IMG/VR virus record: IMGVR_UViG_2897328257_000003
Strand: one strand, 5' to 3'
Source of the DNA: a virus
Taxonomy: Duplodnaviria > Heunggongvirae > Uroviricota > Caudoviricetes
DNA length: 64,000 nt
Positions within the stretch are counted from its first letter, which is position 1; every line of letters starts with the position of its first letter. Position numbers and translations under genes: made by a program. Positions 5,756 through 64,000 of the stretch are shown piece by piece. The notes under the pieces are model-generated. The model ran no database searches. It saw only the letters and a program-made list of their open reading frames with translations, and was not told the origin of the DNA.

Positions 5756-5791
5756 GTTGACCTCATTTGCCCTTAACGCCGGGTCGCGGAA

Positions 5792-6016: not shown

Positions 6017-6050
6017 AAACCCGGAGGGAAGCTACCGGATTTATGCAGAT

Positions 6051-6549: not shown

Positions 6550-6816
6550 ATGAGCCATACAACACTTGCAGATGTAATCAAAGCAGTTCGCGTTTCTGTT
6601 GTAGCCGATGTTTGCGGTGTCAGCCAAAGAGCAATCTACAAATGGATGAATAATGGAAAATTACCGCGCACAGAATATACAGGCGAAACAAATTACGCTG
6701 AAAAAATTGCTCTGGCATCAAACGGATTATTTTCTGCTGATGCGGTTTTGACTATTGGCAGGATTAAGCCTACAGCGAATGAATCACTGGCGGTGAACAA
6801 TGAAAATCACCCCTGA
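6550..6816 (+). CDS. Cro-position HTH protein, YdaS/DicC-like
   Basis: 88 aa from ATG 6550 preceded by GAGGG; HTH-like ..VADVCGVSQRAIYKWMNNGKLP..; divergent from the repressor. Confidence 0.7.
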   Translation: MSHTTLADVIKAVRVSVVADVCGVSQRAIYKWMNNGKLPRTEYTGETNYAEKIALASNGLFSADAVLTIGRIKPTANESLAVNNENHP

Positions 6817-7351
6817 ACAGGTTTGTGAGGCTCTGGATGCCTGGGTATGCCGACCAGGAATGACACAGGAGCAGGCGACGATATTAATCACGGAAGCATT
6901 CTGGGCTCTGAAAGAACGCCCGAACATCGATGTTCAACGCGTCACGTTTAATGATGGCGAGGTTGATCAACGGGCGCTGGGCGTTAATCGAGTGAAGATA
7001 TTCGAACGCTGGAAGGCTATCGACACCAGGGATAAGCGTGAAAAATTCACGGCGCTGATTCCGGCAATTATGGAGGCTATCCGGGTAAGTGATTTCAGGT
7101 TGTATTGTGAAATTACTGACGGAAAAAGCATTACGTACATGATCGCCGGGTTAAACAAAGAGTATGGCGATGTGGTGGAGTCCGGGCTGCTTTTTGCGGA
7201 TCCAGTTGTTGTGGAACGTGAGACTGATGAGCTTATAGAAAAAGCCATTGCTTTCAAGCGTGCGTATCGTCAGCAATACCAACATTACTTTGCAGATAAA
7301 CAAATATCTGTCTGGGGTTCGTATGAGTATCGATGCACTACGATGGGCTAA
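6800..7351 (+). CDS. YdaT-like protein (Rac ydaT family as recalled; proposed CII-analogue/toxic protein)
   Basis: 183 aa overlapping the end of the ydaS-like gene; segment ..DKREKFTALIPAIMEAIRVSDFRLYCEITD.. resembles YdaT. Confidence 0.6.
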   Translation: MKITPEQVCEALDAWVCRPGMTQEQATILITEAFWALKERPNIDVQRVTFNDGEVDQRALGVNRVKIFERWKAIDTRDKREKFTALIPAIMEAIRVSDFRLYCEITDGKSITYMIAGLNKEYGDVVESGLLFADPVVVERETDELIEKAIAFKRAYRQQYQHYFADKQISVWGSYEYRCTTMG

Positions 7352-8360
7352 AAAGGTGAAAACCGGCAGTTCATCCAGTAAGTCAGTATTGACCTGGCTT
7401 GCTGATATGTGCGGTGCCGATTTGTGCGCATACCCGTCTATATCTGCACTGGCAGAAGTAACGGAACTGAACAAAAAGACTGTGCAGGACAGTTTACGAC
7501 ACCTGATGGAGATTGGGTTAATTGTTGATACTGGTGAGAGAAAAGGCAGAACAAAGCAAATTGTGGTGTACCGACTTATCGGTGTAGAAGAAAGTGTTGC
7601 CGAGCCTGAATACACCCAAAAACGGGAGTCTTTAAAGGTGGGTAAAATTGGTACTGTTAATAAAAATAGTACCGAAAATGGTTATGTTTCAGCACAAAAC
7701 AGACCCAAAAACGGAACTCTTAGCTGCATGGAAAATAACCAAAGACACCCAAATTTTCCATCAAAGACACCCAAAAACGGATCACGGAACCCAAAGGAAC
7801 CCAAAGATCTAAACCCCACACATAACGCACGCGAGAGTGCTCCGACCAGTGAGCAGGAAGTTTTGTCGTTACAGGCAGCGCCCCCTGTATTCTTGGATGG
7901 CCTGAGCGAACCCATCGGGAAATTTTCGATGACTACTGTCTGGCAGCCGTCGCTGGATTTTCGACAACGGGCAGTAGTGTGGGGTATGGCTCTGCCTGAG
8001 CCGGAATTTACACCTGCAGAGCTTGCCGCATTCCGGGATTACTGGATGGCGGAGGGGAAGGTTTTCACGCAGGTTCAGTGGGAGCAGAAATTTGCCCGTC
8101 ACGTGCAGCACGTCAGGGCACAGGTAAAACCAGTCAGCAAGGGGGTAAGCCATGCAGCATCAGGTGGCACGGCATCACGGGCAGTTCAGGAAATCCGGGC
8201 AGCACGCGAACAGTGGGAACGTGAAAACGGATTTATCAGCAACGGAAACGGCCTGGAAGCTGTGGGAGCTTATGGGGGAGGTGTATTCGAACCGCTGGAC
8301 TCAGAAGAATGGGGCCGCACCTTCGAAGCTCTGGATTGCCCAGATTGGTGCGATGACTGA
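7323..8360 (+). CDS. Replication initiation protein: N-terminal winged-helix DNA-binding domain, low-complexity linker, C-terminal DnaT-like domain
   Basis: C-terminal ..GKFSMTTVWQPSLDFRQRAVVWGMALPEPEFTPAELAAFRDYWMAEGKVFTQVQWEQKFAR.. closely parallels E. coli DnaT as recalled; iteron-like repeats inside the linker-coding DNA. Confidence 0.7.
   Translation: MSIDALRWAKKVKTGSSSSKSVLTWLADMCGADLCAYPSISALAEVTELNKKTVQDSLRHLMEIGLIVDTGERKGRTKQIVVYRLIGVEESVAEPEYTQKRESLKVGKIGTVNKNSTENGYVSAQNRPKNGTLSCMENNQRHPNFPSKTPKNGSRNPKEPKDLNPTHNARESAPTSEQEVLSLQAAPPVFLDGLSEPIGKFSMTTVWQPSLDFRQRAVVWGMALPEPEFTPAELAAFRDYWMAEGKVFTQVQWEQKFARHVQHVRAQVKPVSKGVSHAASGGTASRAVQEIRAAREQWERENGFISNGNGLEAVGAYGGGVFEPLDSEEWGRTFEALDCPDWCDD
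7650..7810. repeat. Putative prophage replication origin: AT-rich palindrome followed by iteron-like direct repeats inside the replication gene
   Basis: GGTACTgttaataaaaatAGTACC palindrome; repeats gacccaaaaacggaac (7702-7717) and cacccaaaaacggatc (7768-7783), agacaccca x2, ggaacccaaag x2; analogous to lambda ori within O. Confidence 0.45.
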
Positions 8361-8814
8361 ACAGCAAATCCGTCTGGTCTGCCGTCAGTGCATGGACCGC
8401 TGCCGGGCGGGTGAAACGTGGCCCCCGGACCTGGCTGAGTTTGTTGCGCTGATTTCGGAGAGTGGGGCAAATCCATTTGGTCTTACGGTGGATGCCGTGA
8501 TGGAAGAGTACCGGCGCTGGCGCAATGAATCCTGGCGATACGACGGGAGTGATAAATACCCGTGGCCACAGCCTGTGCTGTACCACATCTGCCTCGAAAT
8601 GCGTACCAGAGGGATTGAGCGCCAGATGACGCAGGGTGAGTTAAAACGACTTGCGGAACGGCAACTGACGAAATGGGCAAAGCATGTTGGTAACGGGATG
8701 AGTGTTCCGCCAGTGCGACGACAACTGGAAGGGGCGAAACACCCGAAAGGGCCAACGCCAATTGAACGGCTGAAACAGGAATACGAACGCCGGAAGGCTG
8801 CTGGTTTTATTTGA
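8152..8814 (+). CDS. Lambda P-like replication protein (DnaB helicase loader family)
   Basis: 220 aa; strong RBS AAGGGGG before ATG 8152; ..TWPPDLAEFVAL.. and ..YPWPQPVLYHICLEMRTRGIERQMTQGELKRLAERQL.. parallel lambda P; overlaps the previous ORF by ~209 nt in another frame. Confidence 0.7.
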   Translation: MQHQVARHHGQFRKSGQHANSGNVKTDLSATETAWKLWELMGEVYSNRWTQKNGAAPSKLWIAQIGAMTEQQIRLVCRQCMDRCRAGETWPPDLAEFVALISESGANPFGLTVDAVMEEYRRWRNESWRYDGSDKYPWPQPVLYHICLEMRTRGIERQMTQGELKRLAERQLTKWAKHVGNGMSVPPVRRQLEGAKHPKGPTPIERLKQEYERRKAAGFI

Positions 8815-8847
8815 ATCTGGGAAACGATTTTGTCGGAGGAAATTTTA

Positions 8848-9564
8848 ATGGAAACCGTATTTGACGCACTGAAAGCACTGAAAAGAGCCTCTTCACAGGT
8901 AGTGGCGGCCCGCCTTGGAATCAGCCGTGAAGATGCGGTCAACGAACTGTGGAAACTGAAGCGCCGTGGTGAAGCGGATAACAAGGGGTCGATGTGGTGG
9001 CTGACTCAGGCAGGTGAAAGTGAACCAGTGTCACCGGTACCGAAAGTGACAGCGCAAATGCTGACTGAGGCGATTGAACAACATGGCCCACAAACGGCGG
9101 ATGAGCTGGCACTTATGTTCGGGATTACCTCCCGCCGGGCGAATTCATCGCTGGCCATGGCAATCAGCAAAGGGCGTCTGATTCGCGTAAATCAGGGCGG
9201 TAAATTTCGTTACTGCATACCGGGCGCTGATTTACCGGCAGAGCCGGAAGCTGCATCCGTAGCGGAAACCGATGGTAAAGCCTTTCCTCAGCCAGCAGGT
9301 GTTGCGTTACCAGTCCAGGAAACGACGACACAGGAAGAAATGAAAACAGAAATCGTGGAAGACATTGTGAAGTTACAGCCATCGGTCACCGAAACGAAAG
9401 CAGATAACCTGATTCTACCATCGCTGCATGTGGCTAACCGCGAGCTGCGCCGGGCAAAAGGTCAGGTTCAGAAGTGGGAGCGAGTCTGCGCCGCGCTGCG
9501 GGAGCTGAACAAGTGCCGGGATATTCTCTGGGATATTACCGCCACCAGAGAACAGCAGCGGTGA
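8848..9564 (+). CDS. Hypothetical prophage protein with two winged-helix-like segments (DUF1627-like as recalled)
   Basis: ATG 8848 preceded by GGAGGA at good spacing; ORF track places an upstream TTG at 8830. Confidence 0.55.
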
Positions 9565-9878
9565 GTGGGTGGAAGACGTGGTGCCGGGCTGAAATTCTGA
9601 TACTCCGGCAGTGCGCGGGAACAATGAAGGTAAAAAGCATTGGCGCACTTATCGGACGAACTGAAGCGGCAGTGAGAACGAAGGCACGGGAGTTGGGCAT
9701 CAGCATGATGTTACGTGGTGATTTTCACCCGTCGGCAAAATATTCTCAGCGTGATATTGAGCTGGCGCGGCAACTGCATCAGAGAGGCATGCAAAGAAGG
9801 GAAATTGCCAGAAAATTAGGCATGCCGCTGCGCATAGTGAATAACTACGTTTATTTCGACAGGAGGGTTCAGGCGTGA
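9561..9878 (+). CDS. Small DNA-binding protein with GcrA-like N-terminal HTH and a second sigma-70 region-4-like HTH
   Basis: GTG start overlapping the upstream stop (GTGA); pattern W..E.L....G.....I...+G.T.AV..K...LG resembles the GcrA N-terminus. Confidence 0.45.
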
Positions 9879-10180
9879 GGGTGAGCATTTATATCGCCGG
9901 TCCAATGACGGGATATGAAAATTTCAACCGCGAGGCGTTTCACAGGGCGGAAGAAGCACTGAAACGGGAAGGGCATACCGTTTTAAACCCGGCAGTACTT
10001 CCGGACGGGCTGACTCAGCCGCAGTACATGGATATTTGCATGGCAATGATTCGTTGTGTGGATGCGGTTTATATGCTGAAAGGCTGGCAGCGATCGGCAG
10101 GCGCTAAGGCAGAACTGGCACTGGCGGAGAAACTGGGACATGCGGTTATTTTCCAGGAGGCAACCAGTGAGCGAAATTAA
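9875..10180 (+). CDS. DUF4406-like protein (nucleoside 2-deoxyribosyltransferase-like fold family)
   Basis: 101 aa; GTG start after AGGAGGG with overlapped upstream stop; N-terminal ..VSIYIAGPMTGYENFNREAF.. is the characteristic motif as recalled. Confidence 0.65.
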   Translation: MRVSIYIAGPMTGYENFNREAFHRAEEALKREGHTVLNPAVLPDGLTQPQYMDICMAMIRCVDAVYMLKGWQRSAGAKAELALAEKLGHAVIFQEATSERN

Positions 10181-10329
10181 TTACCAGGAGCTACGGCAGG
10201 TGAAAGAGAAAGCATAATCCAGATCTGAATAATTAAAATCAGCACTGTAAATAAAATTTAATCCTTAACCGGAGGGATTTCTGCACCCTCAGAACATCAG
10301 GAGACCGCCAGAAAGGGCGGTAATGAAAA

Positions 10330-10698
10330 ATGACTGAATTAACAAAAGAGCAATTAATCAAAGAAGCCAAATTAAAAATAGCGGTTGCGAAATGTTACCC
10401 TAATTCAGAGATGGCCAGGGTAGAGGGAGAGCTATTCAAAATTGCACTGGCATCGCTGGAGGCGGTTCCGGTGGCATGGCTGCATTCAGACAATGGCCTG
10501 GGTATTCCAGCAATAACCAGGAGTAAAAACGTTGCTGATAGTTGGTTATCAAAGGGCTGGTATGTTCAGCCGTTATATGTAGCCCAACCTGTACCGGTGG
10601 TGCCGGATGCTCGTCCATCTTTAAATAATGGCATTGTCGGATTTGATGAAGGCTGGAATGCCTGCCGGGATGCCATGCTTAATGGAGATAAATCATGA
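10330..10698 (+). CDS. Hypothetical protein (122 aa), first gene of a coupled three-gene module; C-terminal ..EGWNACRDAML.. motif
   Basis: ORF after a 150-bp AT-rich intergenic region with promoter-like sequence and a hairpin just before the start; stop overlaps the next start (ATGA). Confidence 0.6.
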   Translation: MTELTKEQLIKEAKLKIAVAKCYPNSEMARVEGELFKIALASLEAVPVAWLHSDNGLGIPAITRSKNVADSWLSKGWYVQPLYVAQPVPVVPDARPSLNNGIVGFDEGWNACRDAMLNGDKS

Positions 10699-11396
10699 TT
10701 AATCGTATCAAACTGGAGCACATCCTCGAATATGCCGGGCAGCAGAGGCATATTGGTCAGCATTGTAAAATTCCACCAGGAGATATGGTTGAAATCATGG
10801 AGATTGCCATGCGCAAGGCTGGCAACCCTCCGGTAACTCCGGGGCGTTTGCCTGGCGGTTTCACCATTGAGGAGGCGAAGGAGTTACATGAAGACCTGGT
10901 GCGCAGCCACATAAGCAAGGCTTTAAGTGGCGAAAAGATGAAGAAGAAGGATCTCGATGCTGATTTGCGCTGGATCCATGGGGTTATAGTCCAGGCCGCC
11001 TGGTTTGTAAAAGCATCACTGGAGCAGAATGTGCTAACGGGTAACTCTCAGGTAATCCCTGATGACGGTCGCGAACAGTTTGAAACACTTATCAGGTTCC
11101 ATGCAGATGATAAAAACCATGAAACATTATTGCTTCGTGCTAACGAAGGGATGAATTACCGGGATCCAAATGTGGATTTGGCATGGATATTCTGGAAATC
11201 CAGTCGAGAGCACATATTGCCTGGAAAAAGCGACAATAATCCAGCATCAGGCGATCAGGTAAGTGAATTAACAATGTGGGTGAAGCGGTTATCTCATTCC
11301 TTAAAAAGCGTTAATAAATCAAGCAAACTACCGGATAAAGCGATGGACTACCTGAAGCGAAACGGACTGATAAACGAGGAGAATATTTTACGATGA
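10695..11396 (+). CDS. Hypothetical protein (233 aa), second gene of the coupled module
   Basis: ATGA overlaps with both neighbours; no recognised domain. Confidence 0.6.
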   Translation: MINRIKLEHILEYAGQQRHIGQHCKIPPGDMVEIMEIAMRKAGNPPVTPGRLPGGFTIEEAKELHEDLVRSHISKALSGEKMKKKDLDADLRWIHGVIVQAAWFVKASLEQNVLTGNSQVIPDDGREQFETLIRFHADDKNHETLLLRANEGMNYRDPNVDLAWIFWKSSREHILPGKSDNNPASGDQVSELTMWVKRLSHSLKSVNKSSKLPDKAMDYLKRNGLINEENILR

Positions 11397-11476
11397 CCTG
11401 GCCTGAAGCGTTCATAACGGTAGGAATTGCAATGGCGGTGGCGCTGGTGGTGTATTCGATTTGCCGCTGGGGATAA
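11393..11476 (+). CDS. Putative 27-aa hydrophobic (single transmembrane-like) peptide, third gene of the module
   Basis: Hand-translated MTWPEAFITVGIAMAVALVVYSICRWG; start overlaps the upstream stop (ATGA); below ORF-track cut-off. Confidence 0.3.
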   Translation: MTWPEAFITVGIAMAVALVVYSICRWG

Positions 11477-11538
11477 AAACGGTTTGCGGGGAAAGAAGAG
11501 TTAAGTAGAATTGCTGCGGGTGCTTGAGGCTGTCTGCC

Positions 11539-14500
11539 NNNNNNNNNNNNNNNNNNNNNNNNNNNNNNNNNNNNNNNNNNNNNNNNNNNNNNNNNNNNNN
11601 NNNNNNNNNNNNNNNNNNNNNNNNNNNNNNNNNNNNNNNNNNNNNNNNNNNNNNNNNNNNNNNNNNNNNNNNNNNNNNNNNNNNNNNNNNNNNNNNNNNN
11701 NNNNNNNNNNNNNNNNNNNNNNNNNNNNNNNNNNNNNNNNNNNNNNNNNNNNNNNNNNNNNNNNNNNNNNNNNNNNNNNNNNNNNNNNNNNNNNNNNNNN
11801 NNNNNNNNNNNNNNNNNNNNNNNNNNNNNNNNNNNNNNNNNNNNNNNNNNNNNNNNNNNNNNNNNNNNNNNNNNNNNNNNNNNNNNNNNNNNNNNNNNNN
11901 NNNNNNNNNNNNNNNNNNNNNNNNNNNNNNNNNNNNNNNNNNNNNNNNNNNNNNNNNNNNNNNNNNNNNNNNNNNNNNNNNNNNNNNNNNNNNNNNNNNN
12001 NNNNNNNNNNNNNNNNNNNNNNNNNNNNNNNNNNNNNNNNNNNNNNNNNNNNNNNNNNNNNNNNNNNNNNNNNNNNNNNNNNNNNNNNNNNNNNNNNNNN
12101 NNNNNNNNNNNNNNNNNNNNNNNNNNNNNNNNNNNNNNNNNNNNNNNNNNNNNNNNNNNNNNNNNNNNNNNNNNNNNNNNNNNNNNNNNNNNNNNNNNNN
12201 NNNNNNNNNNNNNNNNNNNNNNNNNNNNNNNNNNNNNNNNNNNNNNNNNNNNNNNNNNNNNNNNNNNNNNNNNNNNNNNNNNNNNNNNNNNNNNNNNNNN
12301 NNNNNNNNNNNNNNNNNNNNNNNNNNNNNNNNNNNNNNNNNNNNNNNNNNNNNNNNNNNNNNNNNNNNNNNNNNNNNNNNNNNNNNNNNNNNNNNNNNNN
12401 NNNNNNNNNNNNNNNNNNNNNNNNNNNNNNNNNNNNNNNNNNNNNNNNNNNNNNNNNNNNNNNNNNNNNNNNNNNNNNNNNNNNNNNNNNNNNNNNNNNN
12501 NNNNNNNNNNNNNNNNNNNNNNNNNNNNNNNNNNNNNNNNNNNNNNNNNNNNNNNNNNNNNNNNNNNNNNNNNNNNNNNNNNNNNNNNNNNNNNNNNNNN
12601 NNNNNNNNNNNNNNNNNNNNNNNNNNNNNNNNNNNNNNNNNNNNNNNNNNNNNNNNNNNNNNNNNNNNNNNNNNNNNNNNNNNNNNNNNNNNNNNNNNNN
12701 NNNNNNNNNNNNNNNNNNNNNNNNNNNNNNNNNNNNNNNNNNNNNNNNNNNNNNNNNNNNNNNNNNNNNNNNNNNNNNNNNNNNNNNNNNNNNNNNNNNN
12801 NNNNNNNNNNNNNNNNNNNNNNNNNNNNNNNNNNNNNNNNNNNNNNNNNNNNNNNNNNNNNNNNNNNNNNNNNNNNNNNNNNNNNNNNNNNNNNNNNNNN
12901 NNNNNNNNNNNNNNNNNNNNNNNNNNNNNNNNNNNNNNNNNNNNNNNNNNNNNNNNNNNNNNNNNNNNNNNNNNNNNNNNNNNNNNNNNNNNNNNNNNNN
13001 NNNNNNNNNNNNNNNNNNNNNNNNNNNNNNNNNNNNNNNNNNNNNNNNNNNNNNNNNNNNNNNNNNNNNNNNNNNNNNNNNNNNNNNNNNNNNNNNNNNN
13101 NNNNNNNNNNNNNNNNNNNNNNNNNNNNNNNNNNNNNNNNNNNNNNNNNNNNNNNNNNNNNNNNNNNNNNNNNNNNNNNNNNNNNNNNNNNNNNNNNNNN
13201 NNNNNNNNNNNNNNNNNNNNNNNNNNNNNNNNNNNNNNNNNNNNNNNNNNNNNNNNNNNNNNNNNNNNNNNNNNNNNNNNNNNNNNNNNNNNNNNNNNNN
13301 NNNNNNNNNNNNNNNNNNNNNNNNNNNNNNNNNNNNNNNNNNNNNNNNNNNNNNNNNNNNNNNNNNNNNNNNNNNNNNNNNNNNNNNNNNNNNNNNNNNN
13401 NNNNNNNNNNNNNNNNNNNNNNNNNNNNNNNNNNNNNNNNNNNNNNNNNNNNNNNNNNNNNNNNNNNNNNNNNNNNNNNNNNNNNNNNNNNNNNNNNNNN
13501 NNNNNNNNNNNNNNNNNNNNNNNNNNNNNNNNNNNNNNNNNNNNNNNNNNNNNNNNNNNNNNNNNNNNNNNNNNNNNNNNNNNNNNNNNNNNNNNNNNNN
13601 NNNNNNNNNNNNNNNNNNNNNNNNNNNNNNNNNNNNNNNNNNNNNNNNNNNNNNNNNNNNNNNNNNNNNNNNNNNNNNNNNNNNNNNNNNNNNNNNNNNN
13701 NNNNNNNNNNNNNNNNNNNNNNNNNNNNNNNNNNNNNNNNNNNNNNNNNNNNNNNNNNNNNNNNNNNNNNNNNNNNNNNNNNNNNNNNNNNNNNNNNNNN
13801 NNNNNNNNNNNNNNNNNNNNNNNNNNNNNNNNNNNNNNNNNNNNNNNNNNNNNNNNNNNNNNNNNNNNNNNNNNNNNNNNNNNNNNNNNNNNNNNNNNNN
13901 NNNNNNNNNNNNNNNNNNNNNNNNNNNNNNNNNNNNNNNNNNNNNNNNNNNNNNNNNNNNNNNNNNNNNNNNNNNNNNNNNNNNNNNNNNNNNNNNNNNN
14001 NNNNNNNNNNNNNNNNNNNNNNNNNNNNNNNNNNNNNNNNNNNNNNNNNNNNNNNNNNNNNNNNNNNNNNNNNNNNNNNNNNNNNNNNNNNNNNNNNNNN
14101 NNNNNNNNNNNNNNNNNNNNNNNNNNNNNNNNNNNNNNNNNNNNNNNNNNNNNNNNNNNNNNNNNNNNNNNNNNNNNNNNNNNNNNNNNNNNNNNNNNNN
14201 NNNNNNNNNNNNNNNNNNNNNNNNNNNNNNNNNNNNNNNNNNNNNNNNNNNNNNNNNNNNNNNNNNNNNNNNNNNNNNNNNNNNNNNNNNNNNNNNNNNN
14301 NNNNNNNNNNNNNNNNNNNNNNNNNNNNNNNNNNNNNNNNNNNNNNNNNNNNNNNNNNNNNNNNNNNNNNNNNNNNNNNNNNNNNNNNNNNNNNNNNNNN
14401 NNNNNNNNNNNNNNNNNNNNNNNNNNNNNNNNNNNNNNNNNNNNNNNNNNNNNNNNNNNNNNNNNNNNNNNNNNNNNNNNNNNNNNNNNNNNNNNNNNNN

Positions 14501-54694: not shown

Positions 54695-54943
54695 GTAAAC
54701 GCAACGGATGGCTTACCGATGCGGGGTTTGTGGTTAACCACCTTGGTGACTCTTAATGAGGGCGGTAATTCTACGGCAAACCGCTTGAATCGCCAATCTT
54801 TGTTGTGAATTACTGGCTTAGCTTTATATTCATTAAGGTAATGCTGATAAATATTCCCGCTTGCAGGGGTAAAAGTGACCTGACGCAATATTTGTCTTTT
54901 CTTGCTTCTTAATAATGTTGTCACAAAAAGTGAGGGTGACTAC

Positions 54944-56173
54944 ATGGATAAACTACTTGAGCGATTTTTGAACTACGTGTCTCTGGATACCCAATCAAAA
55001 GCAGGGGTGAGACAGGTTCCCAGCACGGAAGGCCAATGGAAGTTATTGCATCTGCTGAAAGAGCAGCTCGAAGAGATGGGGCTTATCAATGTGACCTTAA
55101 GTGAGAAGGGCACTTTGATGGCGACGTTACCGGCTAACGTCCCTGGCGATATCCCGGCGATTGGCTTTATTTCTCATGTGGATACCTCACCGGATTGCAG
55201 CGGCAAAAATGTGAATCCGCAAATTGTTGAAAACTATCGCGGTGGCGATATTGCGCTGGGTATCGGCGATGAAGTTTTATCACCGGTTATGTTCCCGGTG
55301 CTGCATCAGCTACTGGGTCAGACGCTGATTACTACCGATGGTAAAACCTTGTTAGGTGCCGATGACAAAGCCGGTATTGCAGAAATCATGACCGCGCTGG
55401 CGGTATTGCAACAGAAAAACATTCCGCATGGTGATATTCGCGTCGCCTTTACCCCGGATGAAGAAGTGGGCAAAGGGGCGAAACATTTTGATGTTGATGC
55501 CTTCGATGCCCGCTGGGCTTACACTGTTGACGGTGGTGGCGTAGGTGAACTGGAGTTTGAAAACTTCAACGCCGCATCGGTCAATATCAAAATTGTCGGT
55601 AACAATGTTCATCCGGGCACGGCGAAAGGAGTGATGGTAAATGCGCTGTCGCTGGCGGCACGTATTCATGCGGAAGTTCCGGCGGATGAAAGCCCGGAAA
55701 TGACAGAAGGCTATGAAGGTTTCTATCACCTGGCGAGCATGAAAGGCACCGTTGACCGAGCCGATATGCACTACATCATCCGTGATTTCGACCGTAAACA
55801 GTTTGAAGCGCGTAAACGTAAAATGATGGAGATCGCCAAAAAAGTGGGCAAAGGGTTACATCCTGATTGCTACATTGAACTGGTGATTGAAGACAGTTAC
55901 TACAATATGCGCGAGAAAGTGGTTGAGCATCCGCATATTATCGATATCGCCCAGCAGGCGATGCGTGACTGCGATATTGAACCGGAACTGAAACCGATCC
56001 GCGGCGGTACCGACGGCGCGCAGTTGTCGTTTATGGGATTACCGTGCCCGAACCTGTTCACTGGCGGTTACAACTATCATGGTAAGCATGAGTTTGTGAC
56101 TCTGGAAGGTATGGAAAAAGCGGTGCAGGTGATTGTCCGTATTGCCGAGTTAACGGCGCAACGGAAGTCGTGA
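54944..56173 (+). CDS. pepT: Peptidase T (tripeptide aminopeptidase)
   Basis: Begins [19 protein letters not shown] (internal Met of the track ORF 54902..56173); M20-family metal-binding motifs; conserved position next to potA. Confidence 0.95.
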
Positions 56174-56318: not shown

Positions 56319-57440
56319 TTACCCTTCGAAGAACCAATACCCGCTATTGACCAGCGCCGCGAGCATCGCGAGGAATGACGGATCTTCCAGCGCATCGCCA
56401 AAATTCTCCGCAGTCAGCGCAATGTTGCTGGCGAGTGCATCCAGTGCCGGACGGTGCGGGGAATCGATCTTCTCACCATTGGCATACACGTCGTCGCCAA
56501 TGCGCAATACGCGCAGACCACCCAGGCGCACCAGCACATCACCTTGTTTCAGCGCATCGTAGATTTCATCTGGCTGATAAGGCGGTTCCGGCGGCGCGAT
56601 ATCCAGTTCATGACGTGACTGGGATATAAACTCGCCAAACCATTGCTTAAAGTGTTCCGGCTGGTTGATCAATTCGAGCATCATCTCACGCAGTTTATCC
56701 ATCTCTTGCGGCAGAACATCCGCAGGATGAGCGCGAGGTGGAACATCAGGATCGCTGTAGTAGTTGCCGCCCAGTTCACGTTGCAGCACATAATCGGCAA
56801 ATCCACTAATCAGTTCCCGCGTATTTGGCGCGCGAAAGCCCACGGAATAGTTCATCGCATTTTCCAGCGCGTAGCCTTCATGCGGGAATCCTGGCGGAAT
56901 ATAAAGAATATCACCAGGCTCCAGCTCTTCATCGATGATGGCTTCGAACGGATCGACCTGTAACAGATCCGGATGTGGGCAGTGCTGTTTCATTTGCAGC
57001 TTTTCGCCCACTCGCCAGCGACGACGTCCGGTACCCTGAATGATAAACACGTCGTACTGATCGAGATGCGGGCCGACGCCGCCGCCAGGTACAGAAAAAG
57101 AGATCATCAGATCATCAATACGCCAGTCCGGTAGTTCACGGAACGGTCGCATCAGCGCGGCGGTCGGCTCATGCCAGTGGTTTACTGCCTGTACCAGTAA
57201 TGACCAGTTGGTTTCACCGAGATGATCGTAGCTTTCGAACGGGCCGTGGCTGACCTGCCATTTGCCATCCTGGTGACTGACCAGTCGACTGTCAACTTCG
57301 CTTTCCATCGCCAGACCCGCCAACTCGTCTGGAGAGATCGGGTCAATAAAATTATTAAAGCCGCGTTTTAACACCACCGGGCGTTTCTGCCAGTGACGTT
57401 CAAGAAAATCGGGCCAGTTAAGAGTGAGTTGGTATTCCAT
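56319..57440 (-). CDS. roxA: Ribosomal protein uL16 arginine hydroxylase RoxA (YcfD), cupin/JmjC-like
   Basis: 373 aa from the second ATG (MEYQLTLNWPDFLERHW..); conserved neighbour of pepT in E. coli. Confidence 0.9.
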   Translation of the reverse strand: MEYQLTLNWPDFLERHWQKRPVVLKRGFNNFIDPISPDELAGLAMESEVDSRLVSHQDGKWQVSHGPFESYDHLGETNWSLLVQAVNHWHEPTAALMRPFRELPDWRIDDLMISFSVPGGGVGPHLDQYDVFIIQGTGRRRWRVGEKLQMKQHCPHPDLLQVDPFEAIIDEELEPGDILYIPPGFPHEGYALENAMNYSVGFRAPNTRELISGFADYVLQRELGGNYYSDPDVPPRAHPADVLPQEMDKLREMMLELINQPEHFKQWFGEFISQSRHELDIAPPEPPYQPDEIYDALKQGDVLVRLGGLRVLRIGDDVYANGEKIDSPHRPALDALASNIALTAENFGDALEDPSFLAMLAALVNSGYWFFEG

Positions 57441-57491
57441 GTTAAGCATCCACAGGCTGGTATCTGCAACCGATTATAACGGATGCTTAAC
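57441..57491 (-). promoter_or_regulatory. roxA 5' region: 11-bp inverted repeat with 29-nt spacer containing a TATAAT on the roxA strand
   Basis: gttaagcatcc ... ggatgcttaac; right arm repeats the ATGCTTAAC that precedes the roxA start; spacer contains ccgTTATAATcgg on the minus strand. Confidence 0.3.
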
Positions 57492-57667: not shown

Positions 57668-58918
57668 GTGATGACCGGATTCAAAATTATGAGCAGAGCA
57701 CTTAACAAACTGAGCGATACACAGCTGAGGAAAATCAACGGCACACCCGCCCAAAAAACAGCCTTTCTTAATGACGGTGGAAACCTGAGCGTCAGGCATT
57801 CAACCAGTGGCCTTTTAACCTGGTATTTCACTTACAGGGCCGGAACGGGAAGGGGGGCACCACCGGAACGCATTAAGCTGGGAAATTATCCTGATCTGAG
57901 CCTGAAATCAGCCAGGGAAAAAGCCGCCCAGTGTCGCGCATGGCTGGCAGAGGGGAAAAATCCACGTCATGAAATGAATTACACCGTACAGGAAGCGTTA
58001 AAGCCGGTAACGGTTGGCGATGCGCTCACCTACTGGCTTGAGTCGTACGCAAAGGAAAACCGTGTGGATTATGACCCACTGAAAAAGCGGCTAAATAATC
58101 ACGTAATACAGCACATTGGCCCTATGCCGCTGGATAAATGCGAGCTACGGCACTGGCTGGCCTGTTTTGATCGGGTGGCAAAGAAAGCCCCTGTTTCCGC
58201 CGGGTTCCTGCTACAGACATGCAAGCAGGCGCTTAAGTTCTGCAGGAAGCGGCGCTATGCAATCAGCAACGTTCTTGATGATATGAGTGTGGCGGACGTT
58301 GGGAAAAAACCGGATATAAGTGAGCGTGTCTTAAGTAACAAAGAACTTGGCGAATTATTGCAGGCACTGGACAAAAAAATATTTTCCCCTTACTACGTCG
58401 CACTAATCCGCCTCCTGATTGTTTTCGGATGCCGGACAGTAGAACTGAGGTTATCGGAGATCGGCGAGTGGGATTTTACCGAAATGCTCTGGACCGTTCC
58501 GAAGGAGCACAGCAAAACGAAGGTAGCCATATTCCGGCCCATACCGGAAGCGATACTGCCGTTCGTCACGCAGCTGGTGGAGCAGAACAGGCACACGGGC
58601 TTATTGCTGGGGGAAGTGAAACAGGAAACCAGCGTATCGCAGTACGGCAGATTAGCGCACAGGAGGCTAAAACACCCTCAATGGTCATTGCATGACATCC
58701 GGCGCACCTTTACAACCATGCTGAACGATTTAGGCGTTGATCCTCACGTCGTGGAGCAGCTTACAGGTCATCAGATGCCAGGGATGCAACGAGTCTATAA
58801 CCACTCCCGTTATCTCGATGCGAAACGTGATGCGCTGGATATGTGGACGGAGCGGTTAGGAATACTGGCGGGAACACATGAAAACGTAACCACGCTACCA
58901 GTAACCAGAATAAAATAA
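57668..58918 (+). CDS. Tyrosine integrase, P4 family (DUF4102-type N-terminus); start may be 57671 or 57689
   Basis: 416-aa ORF; N-terminal ..LSDTQLRKINGT..DGGNLSV..W.FTYR..G..P..+.LGNYPDLSLKSAREKA.. pattern of P4-type integrases. Confidence 0.85.
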   Translation: MMTGFKIMSRALNKLSDTQLRKINGTPAQKTAFLNDGGNLSVRHSTSGLLTWYFTYRAGTGRGAPPERIKLGNYPDLSLKSAREKAAQCRAWLAEGKNPRHEMNYTVQEALKPVTVGDALTYWLESYAKENRVDYDPLKKRLNNHVIQHIGPMPLDKCELRHWLACFDRVAKKAPVSAGFLLQTCKQALKFCRKRRYAISNVLDDMSVADVGKKPDISERVLSNKELGELLQALDKKIFSPYYVALIRLLIVFGCRTVELRLSEIGEWDFTEMLWTVPKEHSKTKVAIFRPIPEAILPFVTQLVEQNRHTGLLLGEVKQETSVSQYGRLAHRRLKHPQWSLHDIRRTFTTMLNDLGVDPHVVEQLTGHQMPGMQRVYNHSRYLDAKRDALDMWTERLGILAGTHENVTTLPVTRIK

Positions 58919-59144
58919 TTTTTTTCGTGTTTTTTCAGTATGCGCATACTGGATAAGTGCACAGATACAACGTGAAACAATGTGCAACAACGTGACANNN
59001 NNNNNNNNATACTGGCGGGAACACATGAAAACGTAACCACGCTACCAGTAACCAGAATAAAATAATTTTTTTCGTGTTTTTTCAGTATGCGCATACTGGA
59101 TAAGTGCACAGATACAACGTGAAACAATGTGCAACAACGTGACA
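58862..59144. repeat. Exact ~136-bp direct duplication flanking a ~10-nt N-run (approx. 58998-59008); probable contig-join artefact
   Basis: atactggcgggaacacatgaaaacg...caacaacgtgaca occurs identically before and after the N-run; first copy includes the integrase 3' end. Confidence 0.6.
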
Positions 59145-59439: not shown

Positions 59440-59628
59440 GTGTTAAGCACTGATCGGTTTATACGTGAAAAAGAATGCGAAAAGCTAACAGGCCTTAGCC
59501 GCTCATGCCGCTACCGCCTGGAAAAGGCCGGACAATTCCCATCACGTCGTAAACTTGGTGGGCGTTCTGTTGGCTGGTCTTTATCTGAGGTTTTGGCCTG
59601 GAAGGATAGCTGCAAGGCAGTTCACTAA
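59440..59628 (+). CDS. alpA: AlpA-family phage transcriptional regulator
   Basis: 62 aa; GTG start after AAGGGGG; ..RRKLGGRSVGWSLSEVLAW.. matches the AlpA family pattern. Confidence 0.8.
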   Translation: MLSTDRFIREKECEKLTGLSRSCRYRLEKAGQFPSRRKLGGRSVGWSLSEVLAWKDSCKAVH

Positions 59629-59968
59629 AAAGACTGGCGGCACACAGTCGCCACACATCCACTAATACAGAGATATAACTATGAAGATTGAATATGCGCC
59701 CGAACGTGGGCGGGGATTCGTTCGCCCTGGTGAAACTGAAAAACAACAAAATTGGGGTTTTTCAGGCATAAAAAAAGCGGCCCCGATATGGAGCCGCCTT
59801 TCTGAACAATTAACCTGCTGCGCCTTATGTGTATGTGATCCCAAACATAAGCACGGGAATGATAGCCGCTATCAGGCTGGTGGGCAATTACCTTGCTTGT
59901 TGGGGCCGTATTGTGCTGCCATTTTCATCCGTTCAGAACGTGAATATTTTTTTAGAAACTCATCAAGG

Positions 59969-60591
59969 NNNNNNNNNNNNNNNNNNNNNNNNNNNNNNNN
60001 NNNNNNNNNNNNNNNNNNNNNNNNNNNNNNNNNNNNNNNNNNNNNNNNNNNNNNNNNNNNNNNNNNNNNNNNNNNNNNNNNNNNNNNNNNNNNNNNNNNN
60101 NNNNNNNNNNNNNNNNNNNNNNNNNNNNNNNNNNNNNNNNNNNNNNNNNNNNNNNNNNNNNNNNNNNNNNNNNNNNNNNNNNNNNNNNNNNNNNNNNNNN
60201 NNNNNNNNNNNNNNNNNNNNNNNNNNNNNNNNNNNNNNNNNNNNNNNNNNNNNNNNNNNNNNNNNNNNNNNNNNNNNNNNNNNNNNNNNNNNNNNNNNNN
60301 NNNNNNNNNNNNNNNNNNNNNNNNNNNNNNNNNNNNNNNNNNNNNNNNNNNNNNNNNNNNNNNNNNNNNNNNNNNNNNNNNNNNNNNNNNNNNNNNNNNN
60401 NNNNNNNNNNNNNNNNNNNNNNNNNNNNNNNNNNNNNNNNNNNNNNNNNNNNNNNNNNNNNNNNNNNNNNNNNNNNNNNNNNNNNNNNNNNNNNNNNNNN
60501 NNNNNNNNNNNNNNNNNNNNNNNNNNNNNNNNNNNNNNNNNNNNNNNNNNNNNNNNNNNNNNNNNNNNNNNNNNNNNNNNNNNNNNNNNNN
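59969..60591. other. Unresolved sequence: 623-nt run of N inside the satellite element
   Basis: Contiguous n characters. Confidence 1.
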
Positions 60592-60708
60592 AGTGATTAT
60601 ACTGGAATCCAGTTGAGTGTTTATCACTCAATGCAAACGAGGCTGAAAAGGATTGCCGTCCTTTCGCAGCCTCTGACCACCAACGATAGCGAAAGTATCG
60701 AGGTAGCT

Positions 60709-61515: not shown

Positions 61516-61815
61516 ATGAAACTTAAATATCCTGGCTTAACTGCCAGCGGCAAAACTCGCACTAAATTCATGCGCGGGGATATTTACCGCGACCAGTACG
61601 GCGGCACGGTAACGATTAAAGGCGTGGAGGAACGGCGCATCACTTACCGCCGTGAAGGCTACGAATATGACTGCGTTATGCCTGTTTATCAGTTCGATCG
61701 TGATTTTTCTCTGGTACAGGCAGCGCCCCGCAGTAAACCAACCAGCAGGGAGAAAGCACGCGCCAATATTCAGGAAATAAAAAAGATGCTTAACGTATTC
61801 AGGGGTAAAAAATGA
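61516..61815 (+). CDS. Hypothetical protein (99 aa) immediately upstream of and coupled to the primase gene
   Basis: ORF with GGAG upstream; stop overlaps the primase start (ATGA). Confidence 0.55.
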   Translation: MKLKYPGLTASGKTRTKFMRGDIYRDQYGGTVTIKGVEERRITYRREGYEYDCVMPVYQFDRDFSLVQAAPRSKPTSREKARANIQEIKKMLNVFRGKK

Positions 61816-63560
61816 AACTGGCACCGAACGTAAAAAAACAGCCACGCGGAATAAAACACAAAGACACAGAGGTGATTATTTTCGCGGGTAGTGATGCGTG
61901 GGCACATGCAAAACAGTGGCAGGAGCAGGACGGCCCCGCATCCGGCGATAATGTGCCTCCTGTGTGGCTTGGGCCAAATCAGCTTGCCGAACTTGATGCA
62001 CTGCAAATTGTTCCTGATGGAAAAAAACGCGTAAGGCTGTACCAGGCAGGAGAACTGGACTTGGTGGAGACCAAAAAGATTGGTCAGAAGCTGGCGGCGG
62101 CAGATATTCAGGACACAAATTTTTACCCCGAAGGAATGCACGCCCAGAAGTGTGAAAACTGGCGGCGCTATCTGAATGCTGAGCGTGAAAATATTGCCGC
62201 AGGGCTTACCATGCCGGAGCAGAAAAATACGCAACTGGCACAAATGGCAGACAGTGAGCGCGCCCAGCTGCTTGCTGGTCGATTTGATGGCGTTTGCGTA
62301 CATCCTGAAAGTGAAATCGTTCACGTATGGCGCGGCGGGGTATGGTGTCCGGTCAGCACAATGGAACTTAGCCGCGAAATGGTGGCGATCTATTCAGAGC
62401 ACAGGGCCACTTTCAGCAAGCGCGTAATCAATAACGCCGTGGAAGCGTTAAAAGTTATTGCCGAACCAATGGGCGAGCCGTCTGGCGATTTGCTGCCGTT
62501 CGCCAATGGTGCGCTTGACCTGAAAACAGGGGAATTTTCCCCGCACACGCCGGAGAACTGGATCACCACGCACAACGGCATTGAGTACACGCCACCAGCA
62601 CCAGGGGAGAACATCCGCGATAACGCGCCAAACTTTCATAAATGGCTTGAGCACGCAGCCGGAAAAGACCCGCGCAAGATGATGCGTATATGTGCCGCGC
62701 TGTACATGATTATGGCGAACCGGTACGACTGGCAGATGTTTATTGAGGCCACCGGAGACGGCGGGAGCGGTAAAAGTACATTCACACACATAGCCAGCCT
62801 TCTGGCAGGGAAACAGAACACGGTAAGCGCTGAAATGACATCGCTTGATGATGCTGGTGGACGTGCGCAGGTTGTCGGGAGTCGTCTTATCGTCCTGGCT
62901 GACCAGCCGAAATATACAGGCGAAGGAACGGGCATCAAGAAAATCACAGGCGGCGACCCCGTGGAAATTAACCCGAAATATGAAAAGCGTTTCACGGCGG
63001 TAATCAGGGCGGTGGTGCTGGCGACCAACAACAACCCGATGATATTCACCGAACGGGCCGGAGGTGTGGCACGTCGTCGCGTGATTTTCCGTTTCGACAA
63101 TATCGTCAGTGAGGCCGAAAAAGACAGGGAGCTACCGGAAAAGATTGCGGCTGAAATCCCCGTTATTATCCGCCGATTGCTGGCGAACTTTACCGACCCT
63201 GAGAAGGCACGGGCTTTACTACTGGAACAGCGTGACGGTGATGAAGCACTGGCAATAAAGCAACAGACGGATCCGGTTATTGAGTTTTGCCAGTTCCTGA
63301 ATTTTCTGGAGGAAGCGCGCGGCCTGATGATGGGTGGCGGTGGTGATTCAGTGAAGTACACGACCAGGAACAGCCTTTACCGCGTCTATCTGGCGTTTAT
63401 GGCATACGCGGGCAGGAGCAAACCGCTAAACGTGGCTGAGTTCAGCAAGGCCATGAAGCCAGCGGCGAAAGTTTACGGGCATGAATATATTACGCGAAAA
63501 GTTAAGGGAGTAACGCAGACCAACGCAATTACAACAGACGATTGCGACGCGTTTTTATAA
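61812..63560 (+). CDS. Phage/plasmid primase-helicase, P4 alpha-like (SF3 P-loop NTPase C-terminal domain)
   Basis: 582 aa; Walker A ..EATGDGGSGKSTFTHIA..; Walker B-like ..LIVLADQP..; standard position in P4-like satellites. Confidence 0.85.
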   Translation: MKLAPNVKKQPRGIKHKDTEVIIFAGSDAWAHAKQWQEQDGPASGDNVPPVWLGPNQLAELDALQIVPDGKKRVRLYQAGELDLVETKKIGQKLAAADIQDTNFYPEGMHAQKCENWRRYLNAERENIAAGLTMPEQKNTQLAQMADSERAQLLAGRFDGVCVHPESEIVHVWRGGVWCPVSTMELSREMVAIYSEHRATFSKRVINNAVEALKVIAEPMGEPSGDLLPFANGALDLKTGEFSPHTPENWITTHNGIEYTPPAPGENIRDNAPNFHKWLEHAAGKDPRKMMRICAALYMIMANRYDWQMFIEATGDGGSGKSTFTHIASLLAGKQNTVSAEMTSLDDAGGRAQVVGSRLIVLADQPKYTGEGTGIKKITGGDPVEINPKYEKRFTAVIRAVVLATNNNPMIFTERAGGVARRRVIFRFDNIVSEAEKDRELPEKIAAEIPVIIRRLLANFTDPEKARALLLEQRDGDEALAIKQQTDPVIEFCQFLNFLEEARGLMMGGGGDSVKYTTRNSLYRVYLAFMAYAGRSKPLNVAEFSKAMKPAAKVYGHEYITRKVKGVTQTNAITTDDCDAFL

Positions 63561-63574
63561 TTTTTTGTAAAAGC

Positions 63575-63795
63575 CATCTACCCCATCTACCTGAACGAAA
63601 TAAACGCATATTATTCAACATGATAAGTGGGTATAGGGCTAGGTAGAAGGCTAATAAAAGCTCTCTACCTCTTCTACCTGATTTTATCAGTTTCAGGTAG
63701 CAGGGTAGACGGCAGGTAGAGGAGTCAAAAAAGCTATCTACCCGCTGAAAGCGGCGCCATTACTGACATGATGAGCATTCGGGTAGATGGGTAGA
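63575..63795. repeat. Iteron array, putative replication origin of the satellite element
   Basis: At least 11 copies of GGTAGA/TCTACC in both orientations within ~220 bp (e.g. catctaccccatctacc, tctacctcttctacc, ggtagcagggtagacggcaggtagagg, gggtagatgggtagagg) just downstream of the primase gene. Confidence 0.6.
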
Positions 63796-63845
63796 GGGGG
63801 GGGAGGCACAACTAAAAACTTTTTAAACGAGGGGGGGTGAAAATA

Positions 63846-64000
63846 AATGCGCATACATAAAAATCACTTAACAAACATGCCAGCCGAATACATGAATCAG
63901 GGGCGACAAATGACCCAAAAACGCAGAGACAGAACAGAGCCAAAATATAAAGCGTTAGACATGACTGAGCACACCTTAAAGGTGGCAATCAGAACGATAG
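63846..64000 (+). CDS. Hypothetical protein, 5' partial view (runs off the window end)
   Basis: ATG 63846 preceded by GAGGGGGGG; open frame to the window end (MRIHKNHLTNMPAEYMNQGRQMTQKRRDRTEPKYKALDMTEHTLKVAIRTI..). Confidence 0.35.

Follow-up and report, generated by a model that had tools for sequence, protein, structure and literature searches.

Within the 64,000-nucleotide stretch of DNA analysed here (the window), the pri-rep gene of an integrated satellite is followed by a dense cluster of short repeats. The question raised by this locus is whether the cluster is the origin at which the satellite replicates and, if so, whether such an origin has been described before. The initial annotation had proposed that the repeats are iterons bound by the replicase and that they constitute a putative origin.

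The cluster contains ten exact copies of the hexamer GGTAGA or its complement TCTACC, starting at positions 63577, 63586, 63642, 63664, 63673, 63704, 63715, 63737, 63782 and 63790, five in each orientation. In register with these are GGTATA at 63630 and GGTAGC at 63696, each with one mismatch, which brings the array to 12 sites over 219 bp (63577-63795). In three close alleles (L001, L002 and L004), the place of the degenerate GGTATA is taken by exact GGTAGA. Paired sites are spaced 8-12 bp apart. The dense array with tandem pairs in both orientations, as first described, is therefore real, although the accompanying count of at least 11 copies is true only when a degenerate copy is included, because the exact hexamers number ten.

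The window consists of 22,868 unmasked bases, the other 41,132 being N. Outside the array, the remaining ~22.6 kb of unmasked DNA has only three exact copies of GGTAGA or TCTACC. When the 286-bp gap that holds the array was simulated 20,000 times under a first-order Markov model, these hexamers numbered 0.17 on average and 4 at most, and no hexamer of any kind was present in more than six copies. The whole non-coding gap from the pri-rep stop codon (63558-63560) to the next open reading frame is taken up by the array, whose first iteron is at 63577; the array is thus located directly 3' of the primase/helicase gene as had been stated. It had also been recognised at the outset that repeats belonging to a coding sequence would speak against an origin. 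This reading is ruled out: the longest open reading frame touching the array is one of 38 aa, and no CDS is annotated over the array in RefSeq at seven homologous E. coli loci. A search for structured RNA in the array with Rfam at E <= 1 returned two sub-threshold chance hits only. Consensus scans found no sigma-70-like promoter in the array and no terminator after pri-rep or within the array, and no DnaA box was seen there beyond one chance-level match with one mismatch.

The genes of the island, all on the + strand, are arranged in the order int (57668-58918), alpA (59440-59628; PF05930, E 5e-18), DUF4222 and pri-rep. The island is situated between pepT and roxA, as in CFT073, and its right end lies past the window. 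The hallmarks of a phage-inducible chromosomal island (PICI) are present: the element has int and alpA, its operon reads rightward and its attachment site is specific to PICIs. Among satellites, it belongs to the PICIs of the EcCICFT073 type and is not P4-like. The positions of the parts of the locus are given in the table.

Table. Parts of the pri-rep/array locus, in window coordinates.
Feature	Position	Strand	Remarks
pri-rep gene, 582 aa	61812-63560	+	D5_N, DUF5906 (SF3 helicase) and Pox_D5 by Pfam; presumed initiator-helicase
Pri-Rep C-terminal winged helix, aa 486-574	63267-63533	+	PDB 1KA8 match; presumed iteron-recognition domain
T/A-rich tract over pri-rep stop codon	63549-63576		Least stable duplex of the region in a nearest-neighbour stability scan
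Iterons 1 and 2, TCTACC on + strand, 9 bp apart	63577-63591	-	Left arm of module X; invariant in 8 alleles
AT-rich 38-bp spacer, 29% G+C	63592-63629		Between opposed iteron sets; candidate melting site
Iterons 3 (GGTATA, degenerate) and 4 (GGTAGA), 12 bp apart	63630-63647	+
Iterons 5 and 6, TCTACC, 9 bp apart	63664-63678	-	End of module X
Iterons 7 (GGTAGC, degenerate, unconserved), 8 and 9 (GGTAGA)	63696-63720	+	Start of module Y
Iteron 10, TCTACC	63737-63742	-	Invariant in 8 alleles
Conserved non-iteron block: TGAAA (63746-63750), CATTACTG (63758-63765)	63746-63765		Invariant in 8 alleles
Iterons 11 and 12, GGTAGA, 8 bp apart	63782-63795	+	45 bp right of iteron 10
AAAACTTTTTAAAC block, end of module Y	63815-63828		Invariant in 8-allele alignment
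Next open reading frame: RBS (G7) 63831-63837, ATG 63847-63849	63831-63849	+	Runs off the window

Several features of the locus lie outside the iterons. The block at 63746-63765, invariant in eight alleles, contains no iteron. CTGAAA holds the equivalent place in the P4 crr units, and GCGTCATTACTGG of the same block is found in the relative L076 despite the different iterons of that locus. The P4 crr units each end in a AAAACTTTTTT-like tract. A T-rich tract resembling that at 63549-63576 is also found ahead of the first two iterons in the P4 ori.

Autonomous replication dependent on Pri-Rep has been demonstrated for the EcCICFT073 allele only (Fillol-Salom et al., ISME J, 2018; PMC6092414). 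A plasmid carrying pri-ori of EcCICFT073 formed colonies at the restrictive temperature and a rep mutant plasmid formed none, while deletion of the ori left colony numbers "significantly reduced", not abolished (PMC6092414). The interval tested in that work was recovered by mapping its supplementary primers onto the CFT073 genome. Those for pJP2027 (pri-ori) and pJP2028 (pri-delta-ori) match the genome without mismatches; primer rep-2c requires one indel, which may stem from a line break in the table. The delta-ori construct ends 4 nt past the pri-rep stop codon. The deleted CFT073 interval contains 11 GGTAGA/TCTACC sites in the layout seen in the window, and is homologous to the window array, with exactly the same position. 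From end to end, the window array aligns with that of Nissle 1917 (L003), which is of the EcCICFT073 type (nhmmer E 1e-34), at an identity of ~73% (BLAST); the identity of the window array to CFT073 is 64% (global alignment).

The neighbouring protein is the presumed iteron-binding initiator. Pri-Rep matches TIGR01613 ("P4 family primase C-terminal"), and its helicase core is homologous to PDB 7OLA, the SaPI5 protein PriRep5 (E 4e-15). The origin-binding domain of P4 alpha, PDB 1KA8, is matched by the whole protein with an E value of 8e-6 and by the C-terminal 103 aa with an E value of 7e-7, over residues 2-89 of the chain. In P4 alpha and the SaPI Reps, iterons are bound through this C-terminal winged helix (PMC2777425; PMC9371898). 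No primase catalytic domain was recognised in aa 1-150 of Pri-Rep by Pfam or NCBIfam.

An array is present at the equivalent position in all 89 related loci examined, and of 5,426 complete E. coli genomes, 563 have a homologous one. The comparative set includes 80 loci from viral contigs, which were scanned with an alignment query; a scan of genome contigs with a single protein query gave 3 loci only. Across eight alleles, the iteron-core columns have a pairwise identity of 90%, compared with 58% for the other columns (permutation p < 1e-4). Four iteron types were found among the 89 loci, GGTAGA, CTGTTCAC, GTGTTCAT and GGTATACAT, and the type tracks that of the Pri-Rep C-terminal domain across mosaic relatives. 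The N-terminus of L076 is 95% shared with the GGTAGA-type L070 and L072; its C-terminus is 76% identical to that of L008, and its iterons are the CTGTTCAC of L008. In at least one switch of type, from GTGTTCAT to GGTATACAT, only about four residues differ, and two of these fall in the presumed wing as judged by alignment position. Few independent events underlie the association between domain and iteron type, and physical linkage is a confounder, since less than 300 bp separate the array from the coding sequence of the domain. A literature search for GGTAGA as an iteron found nothing relevant.

The homology to the tested EcCICFT073 interval, the conservation of the iteron cores, the 1KA8-like domain and the tracking of iteron type by domain type all argue for the reading first proposed. 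The array is very probably the vegetative replication origin of an EcCICFT073-type PICI integrated by roxA. Its kind is already known: the array would be an allele of the EcCICFT073 origin, which had been cloned and assayed by 2018.

An AT-rich region flanked by sets of iterons is the published description of PICI and SaPI origins (PMC6092414; PMC9371898), and in the window iterons 1-2 (TCTACC) and 3-4 (GGTAGA) flank the AT-rich spacer in opposed orientation. Upon induction, the island would express Pri-Rep, an SF3 (D5-like) self-loading helicase-initiator, whose C-terminal winged helix would recognise iterons of ~8 bp having the core GGTAGA. With opposed iteron sets on either side of the AT-rich DNA, bound Pri-Rep protomers might assemble into hexamers on both sides. 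These hexamers would then melt the spacer at 63592-63629 and/or the T-rich tract at 63549-63576, whereupon bidirectional unwinding would start. The melting site is uncertain, because the least stable duplex is to the left of iterons 1-2 and not between the iteron sets.

Judged from its site pattern, the array can be split into two modules, X (63577-63678) and Y (63696-63828). The modules are separable, their order in L070, L072 and L076 being the reverse of that in E. coli. Module X is laid out like the P4 ori, to which it corresponds in the number, orientation and spacing of its sites. Read in the sense of the initiator gene, the P4 ori consists of two sites, an AT-rich gap of ~44 bp, one inverted site and three sites; the window has a 2-2-2 variant of this 2-1-3 pattern, a departure that counts against the assignment as an origin. 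The start-to-start spacings are 10, 44, 21, 11 and 10 in the P4 ori and 9, 46, 22, 11 and 9 in EcCICFT073. Relatives with TGTTCAC iterons (L008, L076 and L009) align with the whole P4 ori (E 3e-5 to 9e-5). Module Y resembles one unit of P4 crr: the arrangement of one site, a gap of 44-46 bp and an inverted pair is common to all relatives and to P4 crr. The comparison with P4-like origins that the initial annotation had suggested thus reveals a similar layout and a similar origin-binding domain, but no nhmmer match of the window array to the P4 genome. No DNA similarity of the array to phage records was detected, P4 matching only the helicase-coding part of pri-rep.

These secondary observations leave the assignment unchanged: the feature is a known kind of element, to which two modules resembling the P4 ori and crr are added. 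Tentatively, the E. coli PICI origin may unite both cis elements of P4 in a compact, permutable form and not be an organisation unique to PICIs, a proposal that is plausible rather than probable. Module X would then share ancestry with the P4 ori, whose layout and orientation to the initiator gene it has, and module Y would be a relative of a single P4 crr unit. Iterons and winged helix would have drifted as a pair through TGTTCAC, GTGTTCAT, GGTATACAT and GGTAGA. If this is true, the natural alleles would constitute a ready-made code for initiator-origin specificity and for incompatibility among co-resident satellites.

The resemblance to crr also gives rise to the rival explanation that survives best, though it is improbable. 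The array, or module Y alone, could be an accessory or copy-control region like P4 crr, at which bound Pri-Rep would, through looping or handcuffing, either enhance initiation or limit it, with replication starting in module X or elsewhere. The P4 cluster directly 3' of alpha is indeed crr and not the ori. In module Y as in the crr units, one site is followed after a 44-bp gap by an inverted pair with a spacing of 9 bp, CTGAAA and AAAACTTTTT tracts are common to the two, and X and Y are separable in either order. However, the similarity of module Y to P4 crr is non-significant (nhmmer E 0.08-0.12), and such a function would refine the assignment as an origin without being a true alternative to it. 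The published deletion does not distinguish between X and Y, because both were taken out together.

It is very unlikely that the repeats are operators through which a regulator of the island, be it AlpA, the DUF4222 protein or another, acts on the SSB/capsid operon downstream. The array is just upstream of the RBS of the next open reading frame, which the invariant AAAACTTTTTAAAC block abuts; homologues of this frame carry the annotation hypothetical protein and have SSB as the next gene, and the frame has a match to phrog_1231. The RBS had been noted correctly, but the ATG is at 63847-63849 and not at 63846 as initially given. A promoter for this gene within the array, also suggested at first, has no support: the scan found no sigma-70-like site, and transcription in Gram-negative PICIs is described as unidirectional and rightward (PMC6092414). 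Both observations, together with the lack of a terminator after pri-rep in the scan, count against operators as well. Moreover, exact GGTAGA is absent from the rest of the island, the region upstream of alpA included, the iteron type tracks the Pri-Rep C-terminal domain, and in L070, L072 and L076 module X is downstream of the AAAACTTTTT block, ~70 nt past module Y.

Least probable is a packaging signal, either a pac site or cosB-like sites for a small terminase: related islands do encode a small terminase and capsid proteins, and terminase-binding sites are often short repeats, but there is no lambda-type cosN in or near the array (a lone window match with two mismatches is at chance level and inside pri-rep), arrays occur with or without terS annotated nearby, and the cos sites of EcCICFT073 were mapped separately, by transfer, while the homologous interval was tested for replication (PMC6092414).

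With the array read as an origin, the interval 63561-63846 can be labelled the ori of a PICI from the EcCICFT073 family, and the gene beside it the initiator-helicase of this PICI. The GGTAGA motif is a cheap marker for these satellites, because none of the seven RefSeq E. coli loci examined has its array annotated. The two-module layout and the association of iteron with winged helix could guide work on the private origins of satellite replicons.

Among known systems, the iteron origins of plasmids share with the window array repeated sites for a winged-helix initiator beside AT-rich DNA. The F (RepE), R6K (pi) and RK2 (TrfA) origins have direct repeats of 17-22 bp in one orientation, and plasmid iteron origins usually rely on DnaA boxes and a loaded host helicase. 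In contrast, the sites in the window are 6-8 bp long, are found in both orientations and are unaccompanied by a DnaA box, and the initiator is itself a helicase. A plasmid origin of the Rep_3/RepE type was rejected on the size and orientation of the sites and the missing DnaA box.

By its published definition, a SaPI ori has 6-12 penta- or hexanucleotide iterons that directly follow rep; its centre is AT-rich and is flanked to left and right by two or more iterons, those on one side pointing the opposite way to those on the other (PMC9371898). The window array agrees with this definition point by point, the agreement being architectural and functional only. Both systems have an SF3-type helicase initiator with a C-terminal winged helix. 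SaPIs, however, are from another phylum and have Pri and Rep arranged differently, and Pri-Rep is without a recognisable primase domain.

P4 has a homologous initiator helicase, with the homologous C-terminal origin-binding domain (1KA8), and its crr is directly 3' of alpha, as the window array is 3' of pri-rep. Unlike the window modules, which are contiguous within 250 bp, the P4 elements are apart, the ori being 4.5 kb from the crr that follows alpha. The P4 crr has two 120-bp repeats, whereas the window has one crr-like unit and no terminator between gene and array. The GGTAGA/TCTACC core has about 4-5 of 8 positions in common with the P4 type I iteron, TGTTCACC. Pri-Rep (582 aa) is 195 aa shorter than P4 alpha (777 aa), and its N-terminus is unrelated to the DnaG/Toprim-type primase domain of alpha (17-20% identity).

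EcCICFT073 is the closest system, having the same host species, attachment site (pepT-roxA / int ... phoQ) and gene order, and the same GGTAGA iteron core with 11-12 sites at matching positions. The window Pri-Rep is 97-99% identical from aa 151 on to the EcCICFT073-type Pri-Rep of Nissle 1917 and 69% identical to this type in the N-terminal 150 aa; three C-terminal residues differ (NVAEFSK compared with NVNDFGK). The bases flanking the iterons are GGTAGAGG/GGTAGAAG in the window and GGTAGACA/GGTAGATA in EcCICFT073, and the 2-2-2 pattern of module X in the window is replaced in EcCICFT073 by the 2-1-3 pattern that it shares with P4.

The intergenic gap at 63561-63846, between the stop codon of the gene for Pri-Rep, the presumed initiator-helicase of 582 residues, and the ATG of the next ORF, carries a dense array of GGTAGA/TCTACC iterons. 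Ten copies are exact, five in each orientation, and neighbouring sites are 8-12 bp apart. The initial annotation had described this array and counted at least 11 copies, a figure reached only if one degenerate copy is included; three close alleles have an exact GGTAGA in place of the one-mismatch copy at 63630. The next start codon, placed there at 63846, lies at 63847. The density is far beyond chance, as had been supposed: when the gap itself was simulated 20,000 times under a first-order Markov model, the count averaged 0.17 and never exceeded 4, and no hexamer whatever occurred more than six times. Only three exact copies are found elsewhere in the window, for which chance expectations refer to the 22,868 unmasked bases alone (41,132 positions, 64%, are N). 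The repeats do not belong to a coding sequence, as no ORF longer than 38 residues overlaps the array, and an Rfam search of the array gave nothing above chance.

Coordinates of the island genes, array elements and masked runs in the window (< is TCTACC and > is GGTAGA on the + strand)
Feature	Position	Strand	Remark
pepT	54902-56173		left flank
roxA	56319-57449	-	left flank
Tyrosine integrase	57668-58918	+	
AlpA	59440-59628	+	PF05930, E 5e-18
Small ORFs		+	between AlpA and DUF4222 gene
DUF4222 protein	61516-61815	+	
Pri-Rep, 582 aa	61812-63560	+	D5_N, DUF5906, Pox_D5 domains
TCTACC, starts	63577, 63586, 63664, 63673, 63737	+	exact
GGTAGA, starts	63642, 63704, 63715, 63782, 63790	+	exact
GGTATA	63630		one mismatch, in register
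GGTAGC	63696		one mismatch, in register
Module X	63577-63678		<< / 38-bp AT-rich spacer (29% G+C) / >> / <<
Module Y	63696-63828		(>)>> / < / conserved block / >> / AAAACTTTTTAAAC
TGAAA	63746-63750		non-iteron block, invariant in eight alleles
CATTACTG	63758-63765		non-iteron block, invariant in eight alleles
AAAACTTTTTAAAC	63815-63828		non-iteron block, invariant in eight alleles
N-masked runs	11539-52025; 59969-60591; 4412-4422; 58998-59008		first is the main run

The gene order and attachment site of the island are those of EcCICFT073, the phage-inducible chromosomal island (PICI) of E. coli CFT073. The order in CFT073 is pepT, roxA, int, HTH, ..., DUF4222, 'DNA primase family protein' and a 288-bp gap, followed by hypothetical, SSB, PerC, capsid, decoration protein, ..., phoQ; the visible part of the window island stops with the window end, 150 bp into the gene following the array. 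A 311-residue 'protein' at 59681-60616 is an artefact of a reading frame that crosses a run of 623 N, and antisense ORFs across the same interval are likewise artefacts of this gap.

In 2018 Fillol-Salom et al. placed the PICI origin directly 3' of the initiator gene (PMC6092414). A thermosensitive plasmid carrying the EcCICFT073 pri-ori segment formed colonies at the restrictive temperature; none were obtained with the rep mutant plasmid, and significantly fewer with the ori-deleted plasmid (PMC6092414). The construct limits were found by mapping the supplementary primers of that paper (PMC6092414) onto CFT073, which rep-1m, rep-3c, rep-4c and rep-5m match with 0 mismatches. The delta-ori construct ends 4 nt past the pri-rep stop and the ori-containing construct reaches about 20 nt inside the next ORF; the deleted interval is thus exactly the CFT073 intergenic gap, where 11 exact GGTAGA/TCTACC sites are ordered as in the window. 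Over its full length the window array aligns with the EcCICFT073-type array of Nissle 1917 (nhmmer E 1e-34; about 73% identity by BLAST), and it is 64% identical to CFT073 itself in a global alignment. Homologous arrays are present in 563 of 5,426 complete E. coli genomes, chromosomal in every case. The array is thus an allele of a PICI origin that has been published and is supported by experiment. The initial annotation, which took the repeats for a replicase-binding array marking the ori, was sound in both observation and interpretation.

An array 100% identical to window 63540-63860 is found in a different PICI, at 1171-13671 of a locus (L091) from E. coli 210205630 (NZ_CP015912.1). This PICI sits inside a prophage portal gene, the CDS of which is split into two partial pieces, and its integrase differs from that of the window island. 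This ori and this Pri-Rep C-terminus are therefore in circulation among islands that differ in attachment site, one of them disrupting a prophage.

Upon aligning eight alleles (77% mean column identity), nearly all invariant runs were found to be iteron cores. In the stretch from stop codon to ribosome-binding site, pairwise identity averages 90% in core columns versus 58% in other columns, and the core value was not reached once when blocks of equal size were placed at random 10,000 times. The G runs vary in length between alleles (G5-G8); in the window they are a G8 at 63796-63803, after the last iteron, and a G7 at 63831-63837, within the ribosome-binding site of the next ORF.

The C-terminal 103 residues of Pri-Rep match the origin-binding winged helix of alpha, the initiator of satellite phage P4 (PDB 1KA8, chain residues 2-89, E 7e-7), and the helicase core matches SaPI5 PriRep5 (7OLA, E 4e-15). 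Alpha combines a DnaG-type primase, an SF3 helicase and a C-terminal winged-helix DNA-binding domain (PMC2777425). The SaPI Reps are self-loading helicases that recognise penta- or hexanucleotide iterons via a C-terminal winged helix; there are 6-12 such iterons, located just 3' of rep on both sides of an AT-rich centre, two or more per side and in opposite directions (PMC9371898). The window array agrees with the SaPI origin in number, place, AT-rich centre and opposed sides. By sequence, the winged-helix domain of Pri-Rep is homologous to two characterised iteron binders. No primase catalytic domain was detected by Pfam or NCBIfam in residues 1-150 (window 61812-62261), the sole match of which is phrog_2850 (unknown function); 'primase' is therefore a family label here and not a demonstrated activity. 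Among E. coli alleles these residues are hypervariable, with 43-100% identity versus 93-100% for residues 151-480.

The relation between protein and repeats was followed in 89 loci that encode relatives 52-100% identical, made up of seven E. coli loci, Shigella, Serratia, Morganella and 79 IMG/VR contigs. All 89 have a dense repeat array directly 3' of the gene, with four iteron types: GGTAGA (72 loci), GTGTTCAT (8), GGTATACA(T) (6) and CTGTTCAC (3). Among the protein segments, the C-terminal domain best follows iteron type. The IMG/VR locus L076 shares 95% of its N-terminal 150 residues with the GGTAGA-type loci L070 and L072, whereas at the C-terminus it has only 33% identity with them and 76% with Serratia L008, with which it has CTGTTCAC iterons in common. 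Despite its different iterons, L076 contains GCGTCATTACTGG. Single-linkage clustering brings the three CTGTTCAC loci together for the C-terminal segment only, and not for the helicase, N-terminus or downstream gene. In E. coli alleles a C-terminal NVAEFSK is accompanied by flanks of the GGTAGAGG/GGTAGAAG type and a module of pattern 2-2-2, and NVNDFGK by GGTAGACA/GGTAGATA flanks and a module of pattern 2-1-3; the pairing extends to Shigella L007, with a protein that is otherwise 97-100% like that of the window. Finally, L078-L090 from IMG/VR encode proteins 97-100% identical outside the C-terminus and have either GGTGTTCAT or GGTATACAT iterons at the same positions, about 330 nt past the pri-rep stop. 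About four C-terminal residues, two of them in the presumed wing, discriminate these groups, which looks like a natural specificity switch. One member, L084, has a hybrid last iteron pair (ATGAACACC ATGTATACC). The association represents few independent events, and linkage alone predicts some of it, because the domain is encoded within 300 bp of the array.

By analogy with P4 and the SaPIs, Pri-Rep protomers would bind the sites via the winged helix, ATP not being needed, and two hexamers would assemble on the oppositely oriented site sets. The AT-rich DNA would then melt and the SF3 helicase would unwind bidirectionally. The lowest-stability 25-mers lie at 63549-63581, left of iterons 1-2, and the next AT-rich stretch is the spacer at 63592-63629; both are candidate melting sites.

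The two halves of the array, modules X and Y, are permutable: within 1-330 nt past the pri-rep stop, L070, L072 and L076 have Y, about 70 nt, then X, the reverse of the E. coli islands, as was confirmed by nhmmer (E 3e-6 to 1e-5). Module Y resembles crr, the cis replication region of P4. Each 120-bp crr unit has '<, 44-46 bp, >, 8-9 bp, >' in common with it, as well as CTGAAA and AAAACTTTTT tracts, a resemblance that falls short of statistical significance (E about 0.1). Tracts similar to the three invariant non-iteron blocks occupy equivalent places in the crr units. That module Y acts as a crr-like accessory region is quite improbable, and would in any case refine rather than contradict the reading of the array as an origin. 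It is unlikely that the array serves the downstream operon as an operator, given that the modules can be exchanged, that GGTAGA is absent elsewhere in the island, and that neither an intrinsic terminator nor a sigma-70-like promoter, such as the initial annotation had suggested for the next gene, was found in the array. A packaging site is also unlikely, as no cosN was found and the assay made on the homologous interval was one of replication.

As an origin, the array can be compared with that of P4 at the level of its modules. The annotated P4 ori, read in the alpha-gene sense, has type I repeats in the order << / gap / > / <<<, and module X of EcCICFT073 reads << / spacer / > / <<<. The start-to-start spacings are 10, 44, 21, 11 and 10 bp in P4, 9, 46, 22, 11 and 9 bp in EcCICFT073, 10, 44, 20 and 11 bp in L008, and 9, 44, 23, 11 and 9 bp in L070. 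Relatives with TGTTCA-type iterons can be aligned with the entire P4 ori core in the alpha sense (E 3e-5 to 9e-5 versus the P4 genome). The window array gave no nhmmer match to the P4 genome, and for GGTAGA-type arrays, including that of the window, the link to P4 ori is one of layout; the sole cross-type sequence link is weak (Nissle 1917 to L076, module Y, E 0.003). A literature search found no paper comparing an ori-like and a crr-like module with P4, and this reading of the array, together with the natural iteron/winged-helix switches, may be new. The analogy with P4-like elements drawn in the initial annotation is loose as regards placement, because the repeats that follow alpha directly are those of crr and the P4 ori is 4.5 kb distant; the correct precedent for an origin directly 3' of its initiator gene is that of the PICIs and SaPIs.
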